From a virus (taxonomy: Duplodnaviria; Heunggongvirae; Uroviricota; Caudoviricetes), in the IMG/VR virus record IMGVR_UViG_2718218129_000002: DNA of 52,782 nucleotides; one strand, written 5' to 3'. How positions within the stretch are numbered: position 1 is the first letter of the stretch; every line of letters starts with the position of its first letter. The notes beneath the pieces are model-generated. The model saw only the letters and a list, made by a program, of their open reading frames with translations, had not been told where the DNA came from and searched no databases. Below, piece after piece: positions 27,717 to 51,251 of the stretch. A program made the position numbers and the translations under genes.

Positions 27717-29192
27717 TTAGGAGCGCCAAAAAAAACCTGAAAACAATATAATAACAGGATAAATTTCAAGGCGACCAAGAATCATAGCTATGCACATTAA
27801 ACATTTTGCAATGTCATTAAGCACTCCGAATGACGATGCAGTAGCCCCAAAACCTAATCCCATATTATTAATACATGCAGCCACTGTTGCAAATGATGTA
27901 AGAAAATCATATCCCATACCATTTAACACCAGTATAAAAAACACCGTGAAGAGAGTATAAAGAAAAAAGAAACTCCATACAGACCTCATTACACGATCTG
28001 TAACTATCTTCCCTCCTACATTTACACTCAACAACGCTCTGGGATGAGAAAGCTGATTTATCTCGTGTTTGCTTTGTTTGAAAAGTATAAGAAATCGAAG
28101 TGACTTAATTCCACCACAAGTTGAACCTATACATCCCCCAAAGAAACTTGACAACAGCAAAAACACTATCGTGTGCGTGGGCCAACTTGCATAATCCTGC
28201 GTAGCTAAACCATTATCAGTGAGCATGGAGCTGGCAAGAAAAAACGAATGAATAAAACTTCCATGCAAGTCATACATACCTATATGCCAGACCTGGAAAG
28301 AGGTAACAATGATCACCCCTAAGGCTATTAACAGAAAGAAACGAAGTTCAATATCTCTGATTAAAGGTTTTATCGTTTTCCTGCTAATAACAATATACCA
28401 AAGAGTGAAGTTGAAAGCCGATAGCAGGGAAAAAGAACCAGCCACCAGCTCAACCAAATAGTTATTAAAATATCCGATACTCTCGCTATGAGTTGAGAAA
28501 CCACCAAGCGAAACTGTGGAAATCCCGTGACAAATAGCATCAAACAAAGGCATTCCTGCAAGTCTATAACAGACAATACAAGCAATACCTAATAAAGAAT
28601 AAGTTATCCACAGTGTCCGTGACGTATCGGCCAGGCGGGGAGTGAGTTTGTCATCCTTAAATGGCCCCGGCATTTCTGACTGATAAAGCTTTGCACCACC
28701 AATACCCAATAATGGCAATACAGCAACCGCCAGAACAATAACTCCTAAACCACCTATAAAATTTAACTGTGACCGATAGTACAAATATGCCCGAGGTAAT
28801 GAACTAACATCATCAATTACAGTTGCTCCTGTTGTTGTTATTCCAGAAACCCCTTCAAACAGAGCATCAATGAACGTTAAATTAAGTTCTGAGTCAATCC
28901 ATAAAGGGAATGCACTAATAACAGAAAACAAAATCCAAAACATTACAATTATAATAAACCCATCACGGGTACGTAATTGAATGCCAGATTTCTTAGTTGT
29001 ATACCACGCTCCGCCACCAATGCAAAAAAATATAACGAAAGTTATAAAGAAAACGAACAGGCTTTTTTCTTTATAAAACAATGCTACAACCATTGGTGGC
29101 AACATTGAAAGACTATAGAGCCAAACCAGGAACCCACACATATGAGTAACAACTCTTACATGAGATGTATTCATATCTAAATATTCTTTCAA
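27717..29192 (-). CDS. trkG: TrkH/TrkG-family potassium uptake membrane protein
   Basis: 491 aa polytopic membrane protein; visibly AT-rich gene with AT-rich flanks. Confidence 0.9.
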   Translation of the reverse strand: MKEYLDMNTSHVRVVTHMCGFLVWLYSLSMLPPMVVALFYKEKSLFVFFITFVIFFCIGGGAWYTTKKSGIQLRTRDGFIIIVMFWILFSVISAFPLWIDSELNLTFIDALFEGVSGITTTGATVIDDVSSLPRAYLYYRSQLNFIGGLGVIVLAVAVLPLLGIGGAKLYQSEMPGPFKDDKLTPRLADTSRTLWITYSLLGIACIVCYRLAGMPLFDAICHGISTVSLGGFSTHSESIGYFNNYLVELVAGSFSLLSAFNFTLWYIVISRKTIKPLIRDIELRFFLLIALGVIIVTSFQVWHIGMYDLHGSFIHSFFLASSMLTDNGLATQDYASWPTHTIVFLLLSSFFGGCIGSTCGGIKSLRFLILFKQSKHEINQLSHPRALLSVNVGGKIVTDRVMRSVWSFFFLYTLFTVFFILVLNGMGYDFLTSFATVAACINNMGLGFGATASSFGVLNDIAKCLMCIAMILGRLEIYPVIILFSGFFWRS

Positions 29193-31710: not shown

Positions 31711-32647
31711 TTTTCCTCACATATGTCATATAGTAAAGGATTATATATACCGTTGTTTTGGACGCTCAAACAGCGAATCAGATCAAATAAAACGCACATT
31801 TGTTAACATTTACACAAAGTCTGCGTGGGATATTCTGAAAGAATATCCATAATGTGGAGAGAATCTATTGAAGTGCATGGTGCCGGGTGCCTCCCGGTGA
31901 ACAAAATGTTCGTGATACCTGTCGGCGACAGAAAAGGTTAATGGTATCACCCCACCGCACAGGGGGATTCACCATGCAGGAGTTTTCTTAGCAAACTCAC
32001 TGCGCGCCCGGCAACTCCCAACCACATAAAATGCGGAGTTTGTGGTATTTATGCATATAACTCGCAGGAATTATCTTAAAAAACTGATGTCGATCCGGAT
32101 TAAAAAGAAGCAGGTCATCATCAGATGACTGGAAAAAAGGAAAACAAAAAATACTCATCATACAGTTTTGATTGCAGGGATGAGCCTGCTATGCACAATA
32201 TGCAGAATATAAGCAAGATAAAAATATGCAGGCATATTATTTCGGATTTTGTTATTAACACAACCTTTTTAATAATCATTTGGCATACAATAAACCAGCC
32301 CAAAAAGAACCGCCTAAACAGGCGGTTGGTCAATACAAAGGATGCTTCGTCTTTATTATAGTAATCTGAGGCGTCGGGTGTCTTGTATCAGACAACATAT
32401 TGTCCCGCTAAACAGCGAATTACAAACCACCCTGCAATGATCTCTCATCTCATTTTATATGAGTTGACGACATCAGGATAACGCATCATCAGCCCCTGCC
32501 AAGAAATATCAAAACTCCCGCCAGCAATGTGTTATCACAATATTGTAAAAAAAACACAGCACCGAAACTATAACTGGTCTCTGTTATAATTTGGAGCAGA
32601 AAGACCAGTTGCCCAACTAGCAGCATTCTCCCCTGCTTTCCTGACGT

Positions 32648-34611: not shown

Positions 34612-34860
34612 TCAGAGGTTGCGGGGATTTCTCCCCGCTGGTCCTCTTACTCCCCAAGTTCGTAAGCTGTGAAGACAGCGACCTCCGTCTGGTCGGTTCG
34701 GATTCGTACCTCGCAGAGGTCTTTCCTCGTTACCAGTACCGTCACTATAACGGTTAAACAGATGACGATCAGGGTGATTAACATCGCCTTTTGCTGCTTC
34801 ATAGCCTGCTTCTCCTTGACCTTTTGGTCGGTAAGAGGCTAATCTACGTATGCAAAGCAT
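34612..34860 (-). CDS. mok-like overlapping reading frame
   Basis: 82 aa frame covering hok, as mok overlaps hok in characterised hok/sok loci. Confidence 0.4.
   Translation of the reverse strand: MLCIRRLASYRPKGQGEAGYEAAKGDVNHPDRHLFNRYSDGTGNEERPLRGTNPNRPDGGRCLHSLRTWGVRGPAGRNPRNL
34621..34638 (-). terminator. hok mRNA 3' hairpin
   Basis: GCGGGGA-ttt-CTCCCCGC perfect hairpin just after the hok stop; no clear U-run. Confidence 0.4.
34647..34802 (-). CDS. hok: Hok/Gef-family type I toxin
   Basis: Hand translation MKQQKAMLITLIVICLTVIVTVLVTRKDLCEVRIRTDQTEVAVFTAYELGE; Hok-like transmembrane toxin, 51 aa. Confidence 0.8.
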   Translation of the reverse strand: MKQQKAMLITLIVICLTVIVTVLVTRKDLCEVRIRTDQTEVAVFTAYELGE

Positions 34861-34925
34861 AGATGTGGCCTCAGATTAATGTTAAGCGTCTTGCCGGACG
34901 CGTAATGTTAACTGGGGCTTTTCTC
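34850..34925 (+). ncRNA. Sok-like antisense RNA (approximate position)
   Basis: TTGACC -35 and TAATCT -10 candidates on the plus strand opposite the mok start; boundaries not determined. Confidence 0.3.
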
Positions 34926-35298
34926 TATCTGCCTTTGGTGTTCATGCCCGAGGCAGACAGCCTCAAGCACCCGCAGCTATTCTACTTAACTCCCGTTACC
35001 TCGCCAATATGAAATCAATCAGAAAGGTGATCCATAAGAGCAATAGCAAGACCATAGATTGCCATTACAGCCGCTATAGTTTCTCTGATTTATTCTGTGG
35101 AAATGGGACACAACACCCCGTCACCACCACCACTTCCTTAAATGCGCTAAGTCAGTCACAAGCCAACACTTTAGTCCGCTTTGAGCGAAAAGCTGACAGG
35201 AGTTTAAATAATCAGTTAAGGCATTACAAAAAGCATGTGCTAATAGAGATAACCAGAGTCAATATATAATCTCTTAGCTCTATTTACACTTACGTACA

Positions 35299-36003
35299 TT
35301 ATTCTTGCTTTTTGGGAGGTCTTGGATATTTCGCAGGTAATTTTTCTGTAATCTTAAATATATCCTCATTTTTTAGTATTGTTCGCATTACAAAATTTTC
35401 TATAATTACCAAAAGCGATTTAAATTCAGTTTCGTTCGGTGCCCATGTCCTGTGTGCAGCTGAGTTGCCAGCTTCGGTTACAATTTTAAGTTGGCTCCTT
35501 TCTGTTTCCCCAATAAAACCTTCCTCTTTAAGAATGTCAACCTTCTGGCCTAATGTATATCCTGGATGAATATTTAGAACCTCAACTGTTCTGTCAAAAA
35601 TAGTTCTAAGTCCAATCGCCGCTAAAATGAATGATTTATTTTGAAATGCGATGTACATTTCGTTCATTATTACATACAGCTGACGATCTTTGTTTAATAT
35701 CTCACCAAACCAAGTTGGTCTAATCTCTTCTTGCTCTTGAGTGGGATATGTTGATATATGATAGTTATATACCATACAATCATAGCCTGACTCATCTCTT
35801 TCAATGTCGTAATCTTCACTGTGACGGGATTTAATATATGTAAATATTCCGTCGCACCCCATACACTCTAATAATTTGTATTCACTTTCAGCCCAAAAAT
35901 AGTTGCCCCCATCATCCTCACTCCATTCTCTTTTTTTATGGCCTATTATGTGGCAATTTTTTTCACCTTTACAATATGGACAAGGAGCTTTAATTTTTTC
36001 CAT
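35299..36003 (-). CDS. zinc-ribbon protein with HEPN-like (DUF4145-like) C-terminal domain, candidate defence protein
   Basis: 234 aa; CPYC...CMGC zinc ribbon; C-terminal helical domain with GNSAAHRTW; AT-rich gene; the domain family is uncertain. Confidence 0.55.
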   Translation of the reverse strand: MEKIKAPCPYCKGEKNCHIIGHKKREWSEDDGGNYFWAESEYKLLECMGCDGIFTYIKSRHSEDYDIERDESGYDCMVYNYHISTYPTQEQEEIRPTWFGEILNKDRQLYVIMNEMYIAFQNKSFILAAIGLRTIFDRTVEVLNIHPGYTLGQKVDILKEEGFIGETERSQLKIVTEAGNSAAHRTWAPNETEFKSLLVIIENFVMRTILKNEDIFKITEKLPAKYPRPPKKQE

Positions 36004-36717
36004 GGTAATTATTCTGCCATTTAAATTAAAATTGATATAACATATATGCTATATGATTTATAAATGATGAACTTACGGCTCACTTTACTACAATAATTTT
36101 CATATGAGTAGTGATATGCCTCTCATTTTCTTTGTCGTTGATTGATCTGCTCTACATTGATTAACACCGAATGGGAGTAACTCCCGCTTTTGGCAGAGTG
36201 CGAACAAGCTGACCAAACCTTAGGTCCGCAGTGAGCGAGGAGCGAGCATTGGCCTTATAAGGCATCGGAGCTGTTCTCCGGAGATCCTCTGAAAGCGAAC
36301 TGTTCGGTTAAGCAGGACGCTTACAAGGCAAGCTTAGCGTGTTGTCTTGTGATGGGTTGCTTAAACCTTTTGTGAAGGTATTTTTCTATCGAAAGATAAT
36401 TAACTGAGGTTGTTATGTCATACATTCGCGTCGAGAAAGATGACCTTCAGCATTAATCAGATTATTTCTGTGAAGAGGATATGGTTACAGTCTGTAGAAC
36501 TTAGGGGATTGTAGTCCAGTGTGGTTGTTAATGAGATGGCAGAAGTAGCTGCTGTTCGTACTGCGTTGCGAAATCTCATTAGAGAAAATCGGGTTGATCC
36601 TCTAACTGATTGAATATACATTCCTATTGCTCACGAGTTGGAATGAGCTGTGACTTTTTAGCTTTAAACTTAACTTTAAGACAATTTTATGATCACGTTA
36701 GGGTGTAAGAAGGATAT

Positions 36718-37944
36718 ATGAGCGGAGAAGTATTTCATAAAAGATTGTTTCCCGTTGGCCAGGGTGGATTTAGTTTAGGCGGACTGAGGGGAAGGGATGG
36801 TAGTTTGCTTTACAGTTATGTGTATGACTGCGGAAGTGACCAATTAAATGCGTTGCGTAGGGAGATGGATGTGGCTAAATCTCTCTTTAATATTGATGAG
36901 AAATATATTGATGTGGTATACATCTCTCATTTGGATTCAGACCATATAAATGGATTTGACCATTTATGTCAGCTTGTAGATAACAAAATACGCAAGGTTG
37001 TATTACCATACCTAGATATCCATGATAGCTATTACTTAATTGCATCGGAGCTATGCTCTAATTCTACGTCAGGTCTTTTTATGGAATTTCTCATTGATCC
37101 TGTCAAATGGATAAAATCAAGGTTGCCTGAGGCAGATATATCTTTGCTTTACCCCAGTGATATTGATGATAATTTTGACCCTCCTATATTTAATAGTGAA
37201 AACATTAAGGGTAGCGCTGTAAGCTTACCAATGAAAATATCTGACTCCAAAGGAGATGTTGAATGTAACCGTTGGTTGGTTAAAAGGATTGGGGAAAACA
37301 AAACTGATACACTAATGTCATTTATTTCTTGGATACCGCCCCGTTCACGTAAGAAAATTGAAATTTTCAGTCAGCAGTTAATAGAAAATGGTTTTACTGA
37401 GTTAAGTAAGAAAAAAATGCTTAAAATATTAACTAGCACGGGGGAAAGAAAGAAATTACGCGAGTGTTATTTAAAACTTGCTGGCGATCATAATGTAATA
37501 TCAATCAATCTCTTGATTATTAATAATCAAGAAGCTGAGATGAAAATTGTTAATGAGCCTTCTCGTGAGTGGTTTAGTTTTAGAAATAGTCGGGTTGAGC
37601 GACATTTTCTCTTTGATAGAGATAAAGGAATTAGATCTGTTTTATTAACAGGTGACTCAAAGCTTAATACATCATTGTATTATAATAAATGGGCTGAATT
37701 CTATTCAAAAGTGATTAAAACGGTAAGGGTGATGACATTACCTCATCATGGTTCGGAATTAAATTTCAATCAAAAAATAATTGCGGATTTTGATAATGTT
37801 TTGTTTATAGCTCAGTCGGATGGTCATTCACATGGACACCCATCACAATCAGTAATCGATGCTATAAATTCAAGTCATGGACATAGCGTTACTTTAGTTG
37901 ACAATAATGCTAAAAATTGGGTTGATATAAAATATATATTTTAA
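36718..37944 (+). CDS. metallo-beta-lactamase-fold protein
   Basis: 408 aa; ISHLDSDHINGF resembles the MBL HxHxDH motif; C-terminal LPHHGS as in ComEC-type MBL domains; AT-rich. Confidence 0.65.
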   Translation: MSGEVFHKRLFPVGQGGFSLGGLRGRDGSLLYSYVYDCGSDQLNALRREMDVAKSLFNIDEKYIDVVYISHLDSDHINGFDHLCQLVDNKIRKVVLPYLDIHDSYYLIASELCSNSTSGLFMEFLIDPVKWIKSRLPEADISLLYPSDIDDNFDPPIFNSENIKGSAVSLPMKISDSKGDVECNRWLVKRIGENKTDTLMSFISWIPPRSRKKIEIFSQQLIENGFTELSKKKMLKILTSTGERKKLRECYLKLAGDHNVISINLLIINNQEAEMKIVNEPSREWFSFRNSRVERHFLFDRDKGIRSVLLTGDSKLNTSLYYNKWAEFYSKVIKTVRVMTLPHHGSELNFNQKIIADFDNVLFIAQSDGHSHGHPSQSVIDAINSSHGHSVTLVDNNAKNWVDIKYIF

Positions 37945-38069
37945 ACATTAGTTGTATTAATAGCATTTAAATAAATTAAGTTTGTTGGTATGTTAAAAGT
38001 TTTTGCTAGATAACCAGGTCTTTTTTGACCGATGATACAGTCTTTGTTCCACGGTGACGTGTTCACACT

Positions 38070-38100
38070 CAAATCTCCTGCAATGTGGGAGATTTGAGTA
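38070..38100. terminator. bidirectional hairpin between convergent genes
   Basis: CTCAAATCTCC-tgcaatgtg-GGAGATTTGAG, an 11-bp perfect stem. Confidence 0.4.
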
Positions 38101-38184
38101 TGGTTGTCCCTGATGTGCGATAAGCGGACCTAACATTATTATGTTTTGAATAATAAGAGACAGTCAGTTGGCTGTAAGTCTGAC

Positions 38185-39078
38185 TTAGTTATCCAAAACA
38201 GCTTTTCTTTGTATTATTGTTCTAATAAATGCTGCTGATATATGCAACACGAATTCAGCATCGTATTCCAAGACAGAAGAAACCTTGTTGCTACCATGTC
38301 TTACTGCTGGCTCTGCATTTGTATAAGCGTAAAATTTCTCTATCACCGTTAAAAGCATAGGTGAGATAGTGTTTTCTTTTCTCATCAGTTTTAATACATC
38401 GCCCAAGGTTGAGGCTGAAGGATAATAAGTCCGACACATGCTTTCTATTGCACTTATTGATTCTTTTATGGAATTTTCTGGATCCTTATGCGCACCTAAT
38501 GCAAAAGCCCGGGCTTTCACATAGTGCCTCCTTGCAGGTTCAAACTGGTCTTGCAATAAGTTGTTAGTTTCATCGATTTTTTGTTCTAATTCATTTGGTA
38601 GTGGTGTTTCTAACCTACCAGCAGAATTCATTTTCCAGTCAATATTTCGAGATGCGAATAACTCGTTCAATTTCTGACGATATGATGTAAAAGTAATGTC
38701 TTCTAATGCCTTCTTACCCCAAGTATGGCCTCTTTCTACATCTCTTTTTCTTAATAGATCTCCGATAATCTCAACAGCATCATAAAATTGAAACCAACGC
38801 ATATGTTGCAAACGCGCTTTCAAAGCATCATAGCAGTACCATGAATCGAAATCCTCATGATCTGTTTCTTGACCATTCTCTGCGCAAAGTCGCTCGATCA
38901 AAGCCTTAATACCCAACGGCTTGTTCTCATCATTCGTAATGCGGCTATCACCATCAATGTACAAAAAATTATCGAGGACAGTTACAAAAAATAAAGAGCG
39001 AAGCCACTCTGGAGCATCTTCCCGTATCGGCTTTTTATTATACTCAGGATCAAAACCATGTCTGTACGAGAACTTCAT
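38185..39078 (-). CDS. hypothetical protein, candidate defence-associated
   Basis: 297 aa from MKFSYRHGFDPEYNKK... with GGGAG Shine-Dalgarno; AT-rich; no motif recognised with confidence. Confidence 0.55.
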   Translation of the reverse strand: MKFSYRHGFDPEYNKKPIREDAPEWLRSLFFVTVLDNFLYIDGDSRITNDENKPLGIKALIERLCAENGQETDHEDFDSWYCYDALKARLQHMRWFQFYDAVEIIGDLLRKRDVERGHTWGKKALEDITFTSYRQKLNELFASRNIDWKMNSAGRLETPLPNELEQKIDETNNLLQDQFEPARRHYVKARAFALGAHKDPENSIKESISAIESMCRTYYPSASTLGDVLKLMRKENTISPMLLTVIEKFYAYTNAEPAVRHGSNKVSSVLEYDAEFVLHISAAFIRTIIQRKAVLDN

Positions 39079-39488
39079 CCCACATCTCCCATTCAACTGT
39101 ATGAATATTAGGTAATTATACAACCAACACAAATCCCTTTGCGAATACAAAAAAATCAAAAAATCACAACAAATTTAAGAACTGATCGCTTATTTCTCTA
39201 TGGATGTCCGCTTCTGGCACGAAGCGGACAAGTTACCGTAGCTGAAGGTCACTAATACTGGGGGCAGGTCAGTTCGCGTTTGTTCTCATAACGGAGTAAG
39301 ACGCTAATGGTATTAAGGTGTATTAATGATCAATGTAGATCAACGATTATTGGCGTTTAACGCTCAGATGAGAACGTTCACCGATTCTGCACGAACAAAT
39401 TCAGAATGGGGGGATTTGATATCCCCCTGGTAGATGCCTTGGTTAATGTTTATAGGTCAATTGAACTCAGAGCATCATTCTTGCCGCA

Positions 39489-40850
39489 TTAGAGATGGTC
39501 AAAAATAGACCCTTTGCGTGGAATAAGGATCTTCTCATAAAGCTTTGTTGCATAGTCATCAGTCATCCCTGAAACATAGTCGCAAATGACTCGCATACCA
39601 GCCTTCTCGTCCAAGCTAGTCTGCCGCTCGTAAATTTCCCTCGTTGATGCCGGTAGAAACCGACACGGATCGTTAGCCAGCACACCGAAAAGCTCAACAA
39701 TCAACTTTTGTCCCTTGAATTCAAGCTGCTGTACATTTTCATGCTTAATTACTTTATTTTTGACCAGTTTGAAAATTTTCAACCGTAGTGCTTCGACCGC
39801 TTCCGGAAGGACCGCATTATATTTGAGCATGCCACATTCGAATGCTGGATTCTTTGTAATAAGCTCAACGCTTGTAATCATCAGGTGAACCAGCATCCCG
39901 ATGCACTCTTTTCTCTTGTAACTTTCACCAAAAAGGCTATCCGCGACAGATTCACATGTTGCGGAAAATGTTTCTCCATGGCAGTTAGTAAATAGGGTTT
40001 CATATTCACTGAAATGCTCCATCCACATTTCTCGTGTCACCATTCCGAGAGAAATAGCATCCTCCAAATCGTGCAGCGAATACGAAATTTCATCGGCAAG
40101 ATCCATGATGGTTGTATCGAGAGCTTTATAAGAAGCTTTTTTATGATCGGATTTAGTTTGACCATCTTCAACGGAAGTAAAAAGCCTCCGATCCTGTTCA
40201 GTAAATGGTGAAAGAGCAAATTCTACAACATCGCATTCTGAATCTAGATAGCATTTTGGAGGTTTAAAATCAGATGACTTAAAGAGCCAGTTCGGCGATC
40301 CGATAGTGGCCGGGATTCTGTCTTTTGTAACCACTAGATCCGAGTATTTAACCGGATATTTCAGTATGCCTAGCAGAAGTCTGCGTGTAGGATCGAGTCC
40401 GTGTTCAACGGTATACTTATCTAGTTTCGAGAGAATGCGAAGTGTCTGACCGTTTCCTTCAAAACCACCGTAATCCTGCATACAGTAGTTAAGAGCTACC
40501 TCACCGCCGTGACCAAATGGAGGATGTCCAATATCATGTGCGAGACATACTGCCTGCATAAGATCGTTATCTGGTAAAAATTGCTCTTGCTCTTTACCTT
40601 TATATTTTATTTTCAGCTTAGCAAGAAGACCTGAACCGATTTGTGCGACTTCCATAGAATGAGTCAGTCGTGTGCGGTAGAAATCACTTTCACCCAGACC
40701 AAGAACCTGTGTTTTGGATTGCAATCGTCTGAAAGCAGACGAGTGAATCAGTCGAGAAAGGTCGTGCTGAGCTTCAGATCGAATCTCCTCCACACGATGA
40801 CTATTGGTGCCTCGTCTCTTATCCCAGACGTTTATTTCACTCCGAGTCAT
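39489..40850 (-). CDS. dGTP triphosphohydrolase (HD domain, Dgt family), likely anti-phage dGTPase
   Basis: RTRLTHSMEVAQIG and HDIGHPPFGHGGE HD-domain motifs; start set at MTRSEINVW by GAGGAA Shine-Dalgarno; about 453 aa. Confidence 0.8.
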   Translation of the reverse strand: MTRSEINVWDKRRGTNSHRVEEIRSEAQHDLSRLIHSSAFRRLQSKTQVLGLGESDFYRTRLTHSMEVAQIGSGLLAKLKIKYKGKEQEQFLPDNDLMQAVCLAHDIGHPPFGHGGEVALNYCMQDYGGFEGNGQTLRILSKLDKYTVEHGLDPTRRLLLGILKYPVKYSDLVVTKDRIPATIGSPNWLFKSSDFKPPKCYLDSECDVVEFALSPFTEQDRRLFTSVEDGQTKSDHKKASYKALDTTIMDLADEISYSLHDLEDAISLGMVTREMWMEHFSEYETLFTNCHGETFSATCESVADSLFGESYKRKECIGMLVHLMITSVELITKNPAFECGMLKYNAVLPEAVEALRLKIFKLVKNKVIKHENVQQLEFKGQKLIVELFGVLANDPCRFLPASTREIYERQTSLDEKAGMRVICDYVSGMTDDYATKLYEKILIPRKGSIFDHL

Positions 40851-41059
40851 ATTATTCCTCATTTTTACTTTGTACACTGCGGCATTCTAACGTAACTAAA
40901 TTATCAAAATAACCTATTTATTTCTGACCTAATCTTCAATAATCAATGTTGTGTGAACTTAGTTAGGCCCGCCCCTGGCACAAAACAGACAACCACGCTA
41001 GCCGTATCCTGTGCCATGAAACTGTCAATTCACATATGAATTAATGGTCTTTAATCTCG

Positions 41060-50854: not shown

Positions 50855-51049
50855 ATGAGATATGACAATGTTAAACCATGTCCATTTTGTGGTTGTCCAT
50901 CAGTAACGGTGAAAGCCATTTCAGGATATTACCGAGCGAAGTGTAACGGATGCGAATCCCGAACCGGTTATGGTGGAAGTGAAAAAGAAGCACTCGAAAG
51001 ATGGAATAAACGAACCACTGGAAATAATAATGGAGGTGTTCATGTGTAA
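50855..51049 (+). CDS. ralR: restriction alleviation protein RalR/Lar
   Basis: 64 aa from MRYDNVKPCPFCGCPSVTVKAISGYYRAKCNGCESRTG...; zinc-ribbon-like Cys pairs. Confidence 0.75.
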   Translation: MRYDNVKPCPFCGCPSVTVKAISGYYRAKCNGCESRTGYGGSEKEALERWNKRTTGNNNGGVHV

Positions 51050-51251
51050 AATTACCGCCACTATTGAAAAGGAAGGTGGCACTCCTACTAACTGGACAAG
51101 ATATTCAAAATCTAAACTAACGAAATCAGAATGCGAAAAAATGCTCTCAGGTAAAAAAGAAGCAGGCGTTTCCAGAGAGCAGAAAGTAAAACTGATAAAT
51201 TTTAATTGCGAGAAACTTCAGTCCTCGAGAATTGCATTGTATTCAAATTAA
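51042..51251 (+). CDS. ydaC: YdaC-like small protein
   Basis: 69 aa from MCKITATIEKEGG...; GGAGGTG Shine-Dalgarno. Confidence 0.55.
   Translation: MCKITATIEKEGGTPTNWTRYSKSKLTKSECEKMLSGKKEAGVSREQKVKLINFNCEKLQSSRIALYSN

Follow-up and report, generated by a model that had tools for sequence, protein, structure and literature searches.

The dGTPase gene and its product

The DNA stretch analyzed here (the window, 52,782 nucleotides) belongs to a virus of the class Caudoviricetes and is held in IMG/VR as record IMGVR_UViG_2718218129_000002. It is a full-length Rac-like prophage. On its minus strand, at positions 39489-40850, lies a gene for an HD-domain deoxyguanosine triphosphatase (dGTPase), the subject of this analysis. 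The gene very probably encodes a stand-alone defensive dGTP triphosphohydrolase of the family of Sp-dGTPase (encoded by Shewanella putrefaciens CN-32), carried as cargo of the prophage.

The gene occupies a long minus-strand open reading frame (ORF; 39489-40877) that counts 462 residues from a GTG codon. Within it, the ATG at 40850, the start used in an earlier sequence-only reading of this DNA, is the best supported, as it has a GAGG ribosome-binding site 6 nt upstream (40857-40860, minus strand) and is also the start of RefSeq protein WP_021554374.1. The coding sequence at 39489-40850 thus comprises 453 codons and a stop. An AAGG or GAGG motif is kept at the ribosome-binding position in the Serratia, Enterobacter, Cronobacter, and Klebsiella homologs. 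The RefSeq starts for the gene differ, with 453 residues in WP_021554374.1 and 457 in WP_350337806.1, which begins at ATG 40862, four codons earlier. The GAGG site favors the 453-residue form.

The product carries both HD-domain motifs that the sequence-only reading had picked out, RTRLTHSMEVAQIG at residues 59-72 and HDIGHPPFGHGGE at residues 105-117. Pfam places an HD domain (PF01966) at residues 61-133 and then an HD_assoc domain (PF13286) at residues 348-439. The protein scores 346 bits against the TIGR01353 dGTP_triPase model (cutoff 152), and E values reach 1e-168, which excludes chance. A single polypeptide of 453 residues with HD followed by HD_assoc fits the form of the family, approximately 440-485 residues. 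As had been remarked, the protein is shorter than Dgt, the housekeeping enzyme of Escherichia coli, by 52 residues (453 against 505).

Family assignment and catalytic residues

The protein scores 560.1 bits against NCBIfam NF041026, "anti-phage deoxyguanosine triphosphatase" (cutoff 400), and 557.7 bits against NF003701 (cutoff 383), and it matches the PADLOC dGTPase model PDLC02374 at 5.7e-144. The Dgt-type equivalog NF003429/PRK04926 gives 149.3 bits, below its cutoff of 405. An alignment to Dgt and to characterized defensive dGTPases had been proposed as a check; it yields 26% identity to housekeeping E. coli Dgt, versus 55.7% to Sp-dGTPase over residues 10-453 and ~67% to the protective E. 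coli enzyme of the G177 type. Tal and colleagues drew the operational line for their defense-associated set at ≥45% identity with Sp-dGTPase across ≥90% of the length, and the window protein lies above the 45% line.

A sequence search of solved structures ranks Sp-dGTPase (9P8W) first, at an E value of 9.5e-152, and Vibrio cholerae VC1979 (7LWZ) next; E. coli Dgt is found at 1e-27. A fold search with an AlphaFold model also returns 9P8W at the top, with a template modeling (TM) score of 0.85. The model is of moderate confidence (predicted local distance difference test, pLDDT, of 74, from a 13-row alignment) and was used only to confirm this ranking of PDB folds.

A multiple alignment served to map onto the protein the catalytic residues known from E. 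coli Dgt (PMC6511015). The metal ligands His64, His105, Asp106, and Asp253 (H64, H105, D106, D253) are kept, as are the catalytic dyad H114/E117, the deoxyribose-handling residues Y257, Q48, and D261, and the guanine-contacting E377. D106 is the equivalent of D101 in Sp-dGTPase, where the D101A mutant loses defense (Tal et al.). The coding sequence is under purifying selection, as identity to the Serratia homolog is 0.92 at codon positions 1 and 2 and 0.79 at position 3. Among the PHROGs, the protein falls at full length into phrog_21998, a family that recurs in phage genomes. All the sequence-testable features of the anti-phage dGTPase family are present in the protein; it does not qualify as housekeeping Dgt or as Clover CloA.

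Phylogeny and distribution

A neighbor-joining tree rooted on Dgt places the protein in an Enterobacterales subclade with homologs from Serratia, Enterobacter, Cronobacter, and Erwiniaceae (81-86% identity). The sister group of this subclade is the validated G177-type enzyme, and both lie inside a clade that also holds Sp-dGTPase. The sequence-only reading had named a firm placement with housekeeping Dgt as part of the outcome that would speak against a defensive role; the protein instead groups with two validated defensive dGTPases. A separate clade at 40-46% identity (Shewanella, Alteromonas, Marinomonas, Pasteurellaceae, and others) has flanking genes that are conserved within genera, and its members behave like vertically inherited chromosomal genes. 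Species-representative genomes gave, among the matches listed, mostly relatives at 40-55% identity, which served as a syntenic, core-like comparison group.

The gene is found in 16 of 5426 complete E. coli genomes (0.3%), 5424 of which carry housekeeping dgt. The G177-type allele is present in 72 of the same genomes, with 64 of its 73 copies borne on plasmids. The window gene is accessory, not core. A DNA search of the phage collection with the gene gave no match, and the sole close match of a protein search was a P1-like phage with a G177-type allele split by a frameshift. In phage vB_EcoM-673R5, the G177-type gene is split into two ORFs.

Ten other loci with close homologs were read, and none shares neighbors with the window. 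Among these loci, neighbors are shared only within the Citrobacter, Brenneria, and Yersinia set and between Erwiniaceae and Pantoea. The Serratia homolog adjoins a ubiquitin-like defense system, the Enterobacter homolog lies in an integrase island at smpB, and the Cronobacter homolog stands beside a retron-like reverse transcriptase and PRTase at a prophage end. The Yersinia homolog is near Gabija-like genes and a QueC/Ogg/methylase module, which is also near the Brenneria and Citrobacter-plasmid homologs. The Erwiniaceae and Pantoea homologs, accompanied by HNH and methylase genes, are located near the Q antiterminator of lambdoid prophages, and the Erwiniaceae locus additionally has a GAPS4-type nuclease. 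Some of the settings include restriction-modification genes. Such varied defense and mobile settings without common neighbors support a single-gene, self-contained defense function.

The module beside the 67-74% relatives (loci L094, 1-3575; L096, 653-4626; L097, 1-2744) consists of a PfkB/nucleoside deoxyribosyltransferase fusion, QueC (7-cyano-7-deazaguanine synthase), an Ogg-type glycosylase, and a Dam-like methylase. A guanine-analog pathway adjoining a dGTPase may be more than a coincidence.

The distribution also bears on whether the protein is a housekeeping paralog of Dgt that serves in the control of deoxynucleoside triphosphate (dNTP) pools or in mutation avoidance and has no immune role. 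Its fold and catalytic residues are those of Dgt, and its NCBIfam subfamily does hold syntenic chromosomal genes of other genera. Such a role is nevertheless extremely unlikely, given 26% identity to Dgt and 149 bits where the equivalog demands 405, a gene confined to 0.3% of E. coli genomes when all but two already have dgt, and a location that is always on mobile or defense islands with unrelated neighbors.

A mobile cassette and its flanks

The dGTPase gene moves as its own 1.7-kb cassette, corresponding to window positions 39271-40981 and composed of the gene, 131 bp upstream, and 218 bp downstream. The cassette recurs at 97% identity in E. coli 1303 and five further genomes, where it adjoins an integrase fragment, a type I restriction-modification system, and DarTG. 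A small Klebsiella plasmid has the dGTPase gene with the same 131-bp upstream flank. In E. coli strain 1919D3 (L001, 6419-7581), an IS3 element directly downstream of the cassette replaces the remainder of the cargo island in which the gene lies and part of the lysis region, with rrrD truncated; the dGTPase gene and both flanks are intact. A transposon or integron structure was considered and rejected, as the cassette lacks meaningful flanking repeats, direct or inverted.

The upstream flank that travels with the gene (40851-40981, minus strand) is the presumed promoter region. Its boundary is set by homology with the E. coli 1303 island, which ends at 40981, and in other Rac-like prophages the homology returns at 40976-41020. 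The intergenic gap upstream of the gene measures 209 bp (40851-41059), so the gene has an upstream region of its own, as the sequence-only reading had stated. By eye, a candidate -10 element, TAGAAT, is seen at 40884-40889 with a poor -35.

The downstream flank of 218 bp (39271-39488, minus strand) is a region of 3' untranslated sequence and terminator, with hairpins at 39409-39427 and 39359-39378. The first of these is the downstream hairpin that had been noticed earlier, a G+C-rich 7-bp stem (GGGGGAU/AUCCCCC) located 62 nt past the stop codon. It lacks a proper T-run and was not called by a scan for canonical terminators, and folding of the 3' region is no better than that of shuffled sequences (z = -0.93). 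Autonomous expression is less well supported than the sequence-only reading had implied.

Two accounts of the gene turn on its expression. The first is that the gene serves the lytic program of the prophage itself and is expressed only by early-right read-through after induction, for lytic-phase exclusion or manipulation of nucleotide pools. The gene points the same way as the upstream replication genes (ydaU/ydaV-like, DUF1627, and DUF977), the 209-bp gap has no consensus promoter, and phrog_21998 attests to recurrence in phage genomes. Depletion of dGTP during the prophage's own DNA replication would, however, be self-defeating, and the gene with its 131-bp flank is also found at non-prophage sites that have no early-right operon, namely beside the restriction-modification and DarTG genes of E. 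coli 1303 and on the small Klebsiella plasmid. The gene is therefore unlikely to serve the lytic program.

The second account is that the gene is an intact but unexpressed passenger, silenced, for example, along with an AT-rich island, or on its way to decay. No promoter was called, the island is AT-rich, and insertion sequence elements are eroding it in some strains. A passenger would hardly be expected to keep an intact ORF, every catalytic residue, and the imprint of purifying selection across genera, nor would the IS3 event in 1919D3 be expected to take the neighbors and spare the gene with both flanks. Silence or decay is accordingly given almost no credence.

Both flanks align across genera. 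The 3' flank (39345-39488, minus strand) folds into three to four hairpins, and RNAalifold reports compensatory changes at 8 base pairs among E. coli, Klebsiella, Serratia, Enterobacter, and Cronobacter; the intervals compared were L007 9363-9500, L009 9363-9500, and L092 4363-4500. Flank identity to the window is 0.81 in Serratia, 0.74 in Enterobacter, and 0.51 in Cronobacter, and the corresponding values for third codon positions are 0.79, 0.78, and 0.65. The Erwiniaceae (a metagenome-assembled genome) and Pantoea homologs are 84% identical to the window protein and have a different, unrelated 3' flank. An Rfam search of the flank gave no family match. A conserved non-coding element was rejected on these grounds: identity tracks that of third codon positions, the Erwiniaceae and Pantoea flank differs, no Rfam family matches, and there is no excess of folding. 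Since conservation is no higher than at third positions and homologs at 84% have another flank, the region is read as an ordinary 3' untranslated region and terminator inherited with a recently spread cassette.

It is highly improbable that the ~140-nt structured flank is instead a labile RNA, acting in cis or in trans, that couples the expression or activity of the dGTPase to continuing transcription in the host. The flank does travel with the gene in E. coli, Klebsiella, Serratia, and Enterobacter and is more divergent in Cronobacter. Such an RNA, if real, would be a physical basis for the escape of T7 through mutations in inhibitors of host RNA polymerase. Weighing against it, pBAD-driven expression of relatives of the enzyme also confers protection; the stored inserts start with the ATG, and their 3' ends were not seen.

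The cargo slot and neighboring genes

The dGTPase gene is part of a variable, low-GC cargo island of 5.8 kb (approximately 35188-40975, boundaries by alignment of sibling prophages) between hok/sok and the DUF977 gene. The G+C content is 0.43 in the dGTPase gene and 0.39 in the hok-DUF977 island, versus 0.50 in the neighboring replication and structural modules, in keeping with the earlier description of AT-rich prophage cargo. Sibling Rac-like prophages have the common flanks of this slot with other cargo, either PARIS (AriA/AriB) or NsnABC. The differing defense cargo between shared flanks identifies the slot as a defense hotspot, and the hok/sok-to-DUF977 stretch of Rac-like prophages is a replaceable defense slot. 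PARIS occupies the slot of strain T-HYM1 and NsnABC that of strain E62 (compared intervals L004 3109-6181 and L005 3104-7118). Strains W and LY180 are annotated with the three slot genes of E62, as DUF262, AAA ATPase, and hypothetical.

The island contains four genes: a DUF4145 gene, an MBL-fold gene, an AbiJ_NTD4/PDC-S32 gene, and the dGTPase gene, whose immediate neighbors are the DUF977 gene and the AbiJ_NTD4/PDC-S32 gene. The latter (38185-39078, minus strand) encodes a 297-residue protein, WP_021554375.1, "hypothetical" in RefSeq, with a borderline AbiJ_NTD4 match (33.9 bits, cutoff 34) and a PADLOC PDC-S32 match at 5.8e-34. By these matches it is a candidate single-gene defense. The MBL-fold metallo-hydrolase (36718-37944, plus strand; 408 residues, G+C 0.34) has a C-terminal part like that of defense MBL proteins (LmuA at 2.4e-12, Avs1a, a DRT-associated MBL, and PDC-M48B) and scores below every curated cutoff. 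The DUF4145 protein (35299-36003, minus strand; 234 residues) is encoded by the first island gene next to hok/sok; it belongs to phrog_1305, "DNA binding protein", and has no match among the PADLOC models.

The neighbors raise the alternative that the dGTPase is one part of a multi-gene system with the AbiJ_NTD4/PDC-S32 gene, the MBL-fold gene, or both, in the way that CloA needs CloB. At least 8 genomes have inherited all four island genes together at ~100% identity, and the two neighbors match models of defense candidates (PDC-S32 at 5.8e-34 and an LmuA/Avs1a-like MBL). On the other hand, the cassette occurs without them in the islands of the E. coli 1303 type and in 1919D3, and they are absent from the loci examined in Serratia, Enterobacter, Cronobacter, Erwiniaceae, Pantoea, Brenneria, and Yersinia. 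The island genes stand 330-410 bp apart, with hairpins in the gaps, and the MBL gene lies on the opposite strand. Validated relatives act as single ORFs, and the domain matches of the window neighbors include no nucleotidyltransferase partner domain. Dependence on the neighboring genes is thus very unlikely.

Elsewhere in the window, the prophage carries intR, xisR, rcbA, ralR with the RalA small RNA, recET, kilR, sieB, a ydaS/T/U/V-like replication module, lysis genes, trkG, and head and tail genes. The position of trkG (27717-29192, minus strand) between the lysis and packaging genes is that seen in K-12 Rac. Rfam matches are found for the RalA antitoxin small RNA (51048-51226), sok (34797-34972), STnc100 (31821-32007), and IS009 (1273-1471), all on the minus strand.

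Proposed function

The defensive role put forward in the sequence-only reading is borne out on four counts: the protein passes the anti-phage model, it forms a clade with validated enzymes, it is not Dgt-like, and its slot is filled by other defense systems in sibling prophages. Judging from characterized relatives, the enzyme would form a hexamer like Sp-dGTPase and hydrolyze dGTP to deoxyguanosine and triphosphate. Its expression may be driven by the gene's own 131-bp upstream flank and not depend on the neighboring genes. In a lysogen, dGTP would be removed just when a superinfecting lytic phage requires it, and replication of the phage DNA would stall.

This scheme draws on work with the relatives. 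Sp-dGTPase protects E. coli, and T7-infected cells lose dGTP while deoxyguanosine rises (Tal et al.). The enzyme is a hexamer that hydrolyzes dGTP alone in vitro (Yamaguchi et al. 2025, PDB 9P8W). Mutations in gp5.7 and gp0.7 allow T7 to escape Sp-dGTPase (Tal et al.). Because the products of both genes act on host RNA polymerase, the trigger is probably tied to shut-off of host transcription, and full activity of the window enzyme probably depends on interference by the phage with host transcription. The carrier prophage is lambdoid and uses the host RNA polymerase, and we infer that it would not trigger its own enzyme.

Several points weigh against a defensive role. Sp-dGTPase is constitutively active in vitro, a point that bears on how activity is restrained or triggered. 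The wider NCBIfam subfamily also includes syntenic chromosomal genes without an assigned role. A scan of the upstream gap for a consensus sigma-70 promoter found none, and the gene is co-oriented with the early-right genes of the prophage, so its expression in the lysogen is only presumed. A literature search, which included three RefSeq accessions, found no study of the window protein.

The remaining points concern the relatives that were cloned. Of six dGTPases cloned by Tal and colleagues, four were protective (Ec G177, Ms, Pl, and Sp); their Table S5 lists the other two as clones from Psychrobacter and Enterobacter sp. ODB01. Of the enzymes tested, the ODB01 protein comes nearest to the window protein (92% identity over the 133 residues available, compared with window residues 98-230), and it is not among the protective four. 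Its clone begins MQAVCLAHDIG, the equivalent of M98, and is without metal ligand H64 and Q48. This N-terminal truncation, seen in the sequence of the clone, probably explains why it did not protect, and the failure says little because H64 is missing. It was the sole tested clone from the Enterobacterales subclade at ≥80% identity.

Comparison with known systems

Sp-dGTPase (Tal et al. 2021/2022; 9P8W) is likewise a single-gene dGTPase with HD and HD_assoc domains, its catalytic residues are identical, and both genes are found among defense genes. It differs in length, at 461-463 residues versus 453, and in its carrier, which here is a Rac-like E. coli prophage.

The G177-type enzyme, validated by Tal and colleagues, resembles the window protein as an accessory E. 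coli dGTPase on an element derived from a temperate phage and as its sister group in the tree. It belongs, however, to another allele family. The two G177-type loci read are a P1-like IncY phage-plasmid and a Punavirus phage, with the gene between ssb and hxr (L093, 4001-5356; L095, 4001-5354), and the non-coding flanks are unrelated to those in the window.

Housekeeping Dgt (b0160; PDB 4X9E/6OIY) shares the HD triphosphohydrolase fold, the metal ligands, and the His/Glu dyad. In contrast, it is 52 residues longer, with insertions, and its trans-acting Arg433 and Arg442 do not align. The complex of Dgt with Gp1.2 (7U67) is among the fold matches listed. Dgt can restrict T7 that lacks Gp1.2, its inhibitor.

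Clover is another anti-phage system with a dGTP-depleting HD enzyme (Yamaguchi et al. 2025). Its CloA is an octamer and needs the nucleotidyltransferase CloB along with dTTP and p3diT signals, whereas the window has no such partner, and the match to CloA is distant (~1e-22). Two chains of 402 residues, 9VWA and 9VWC, match the window protein at 1e-42 in two stretches, versus 1e-152 for the hexameric Sp-dGTPase. These chains are presumably Vdg. The Vdg-type dGTPases are also anti-phage, dGTP-depleting HD enzymes, and Vdg is octameric (Shi et al. 2026).

Human SAMHD1 provides an antiviral parallel in the depletion of dNTPs by an HD triphosphohydrolase. The relation is remote, and SAMHD1 differs in its broad dNTP specificity and its SAM domain. 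It is a tetramer under allosteric regulation by dNTPs and GTP.

Significance of the prophage dGTPase

The gene is a routine instance of a known system, and its identity is already public. The identical protein is in RefSeq as WP_021554374.1, "anti-phage deoxyguanosine triphosphatase". The E. coli 1303 allele, which is 98% identical, appears in Table S2 of Tal and colleagues among the defense-associated homologs, at 54% and flagged beside defense systems. Within the Enterobacterales subclade at ≥80% identity, the only clone made was the N-terminally truncated one. The locus offers no new mechanistic lesson; it illustrates neatly how a temperate phage arms its host with an enzyme that depletes nucleotides, and it also exemplifies the replaceable defense slot between hok/sok and DUF977 in Rac-type prophages. 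Strains that harbor the prophage may be resistant to therapeutic or typing phages, in a manner that depends on the supply of dGTP.

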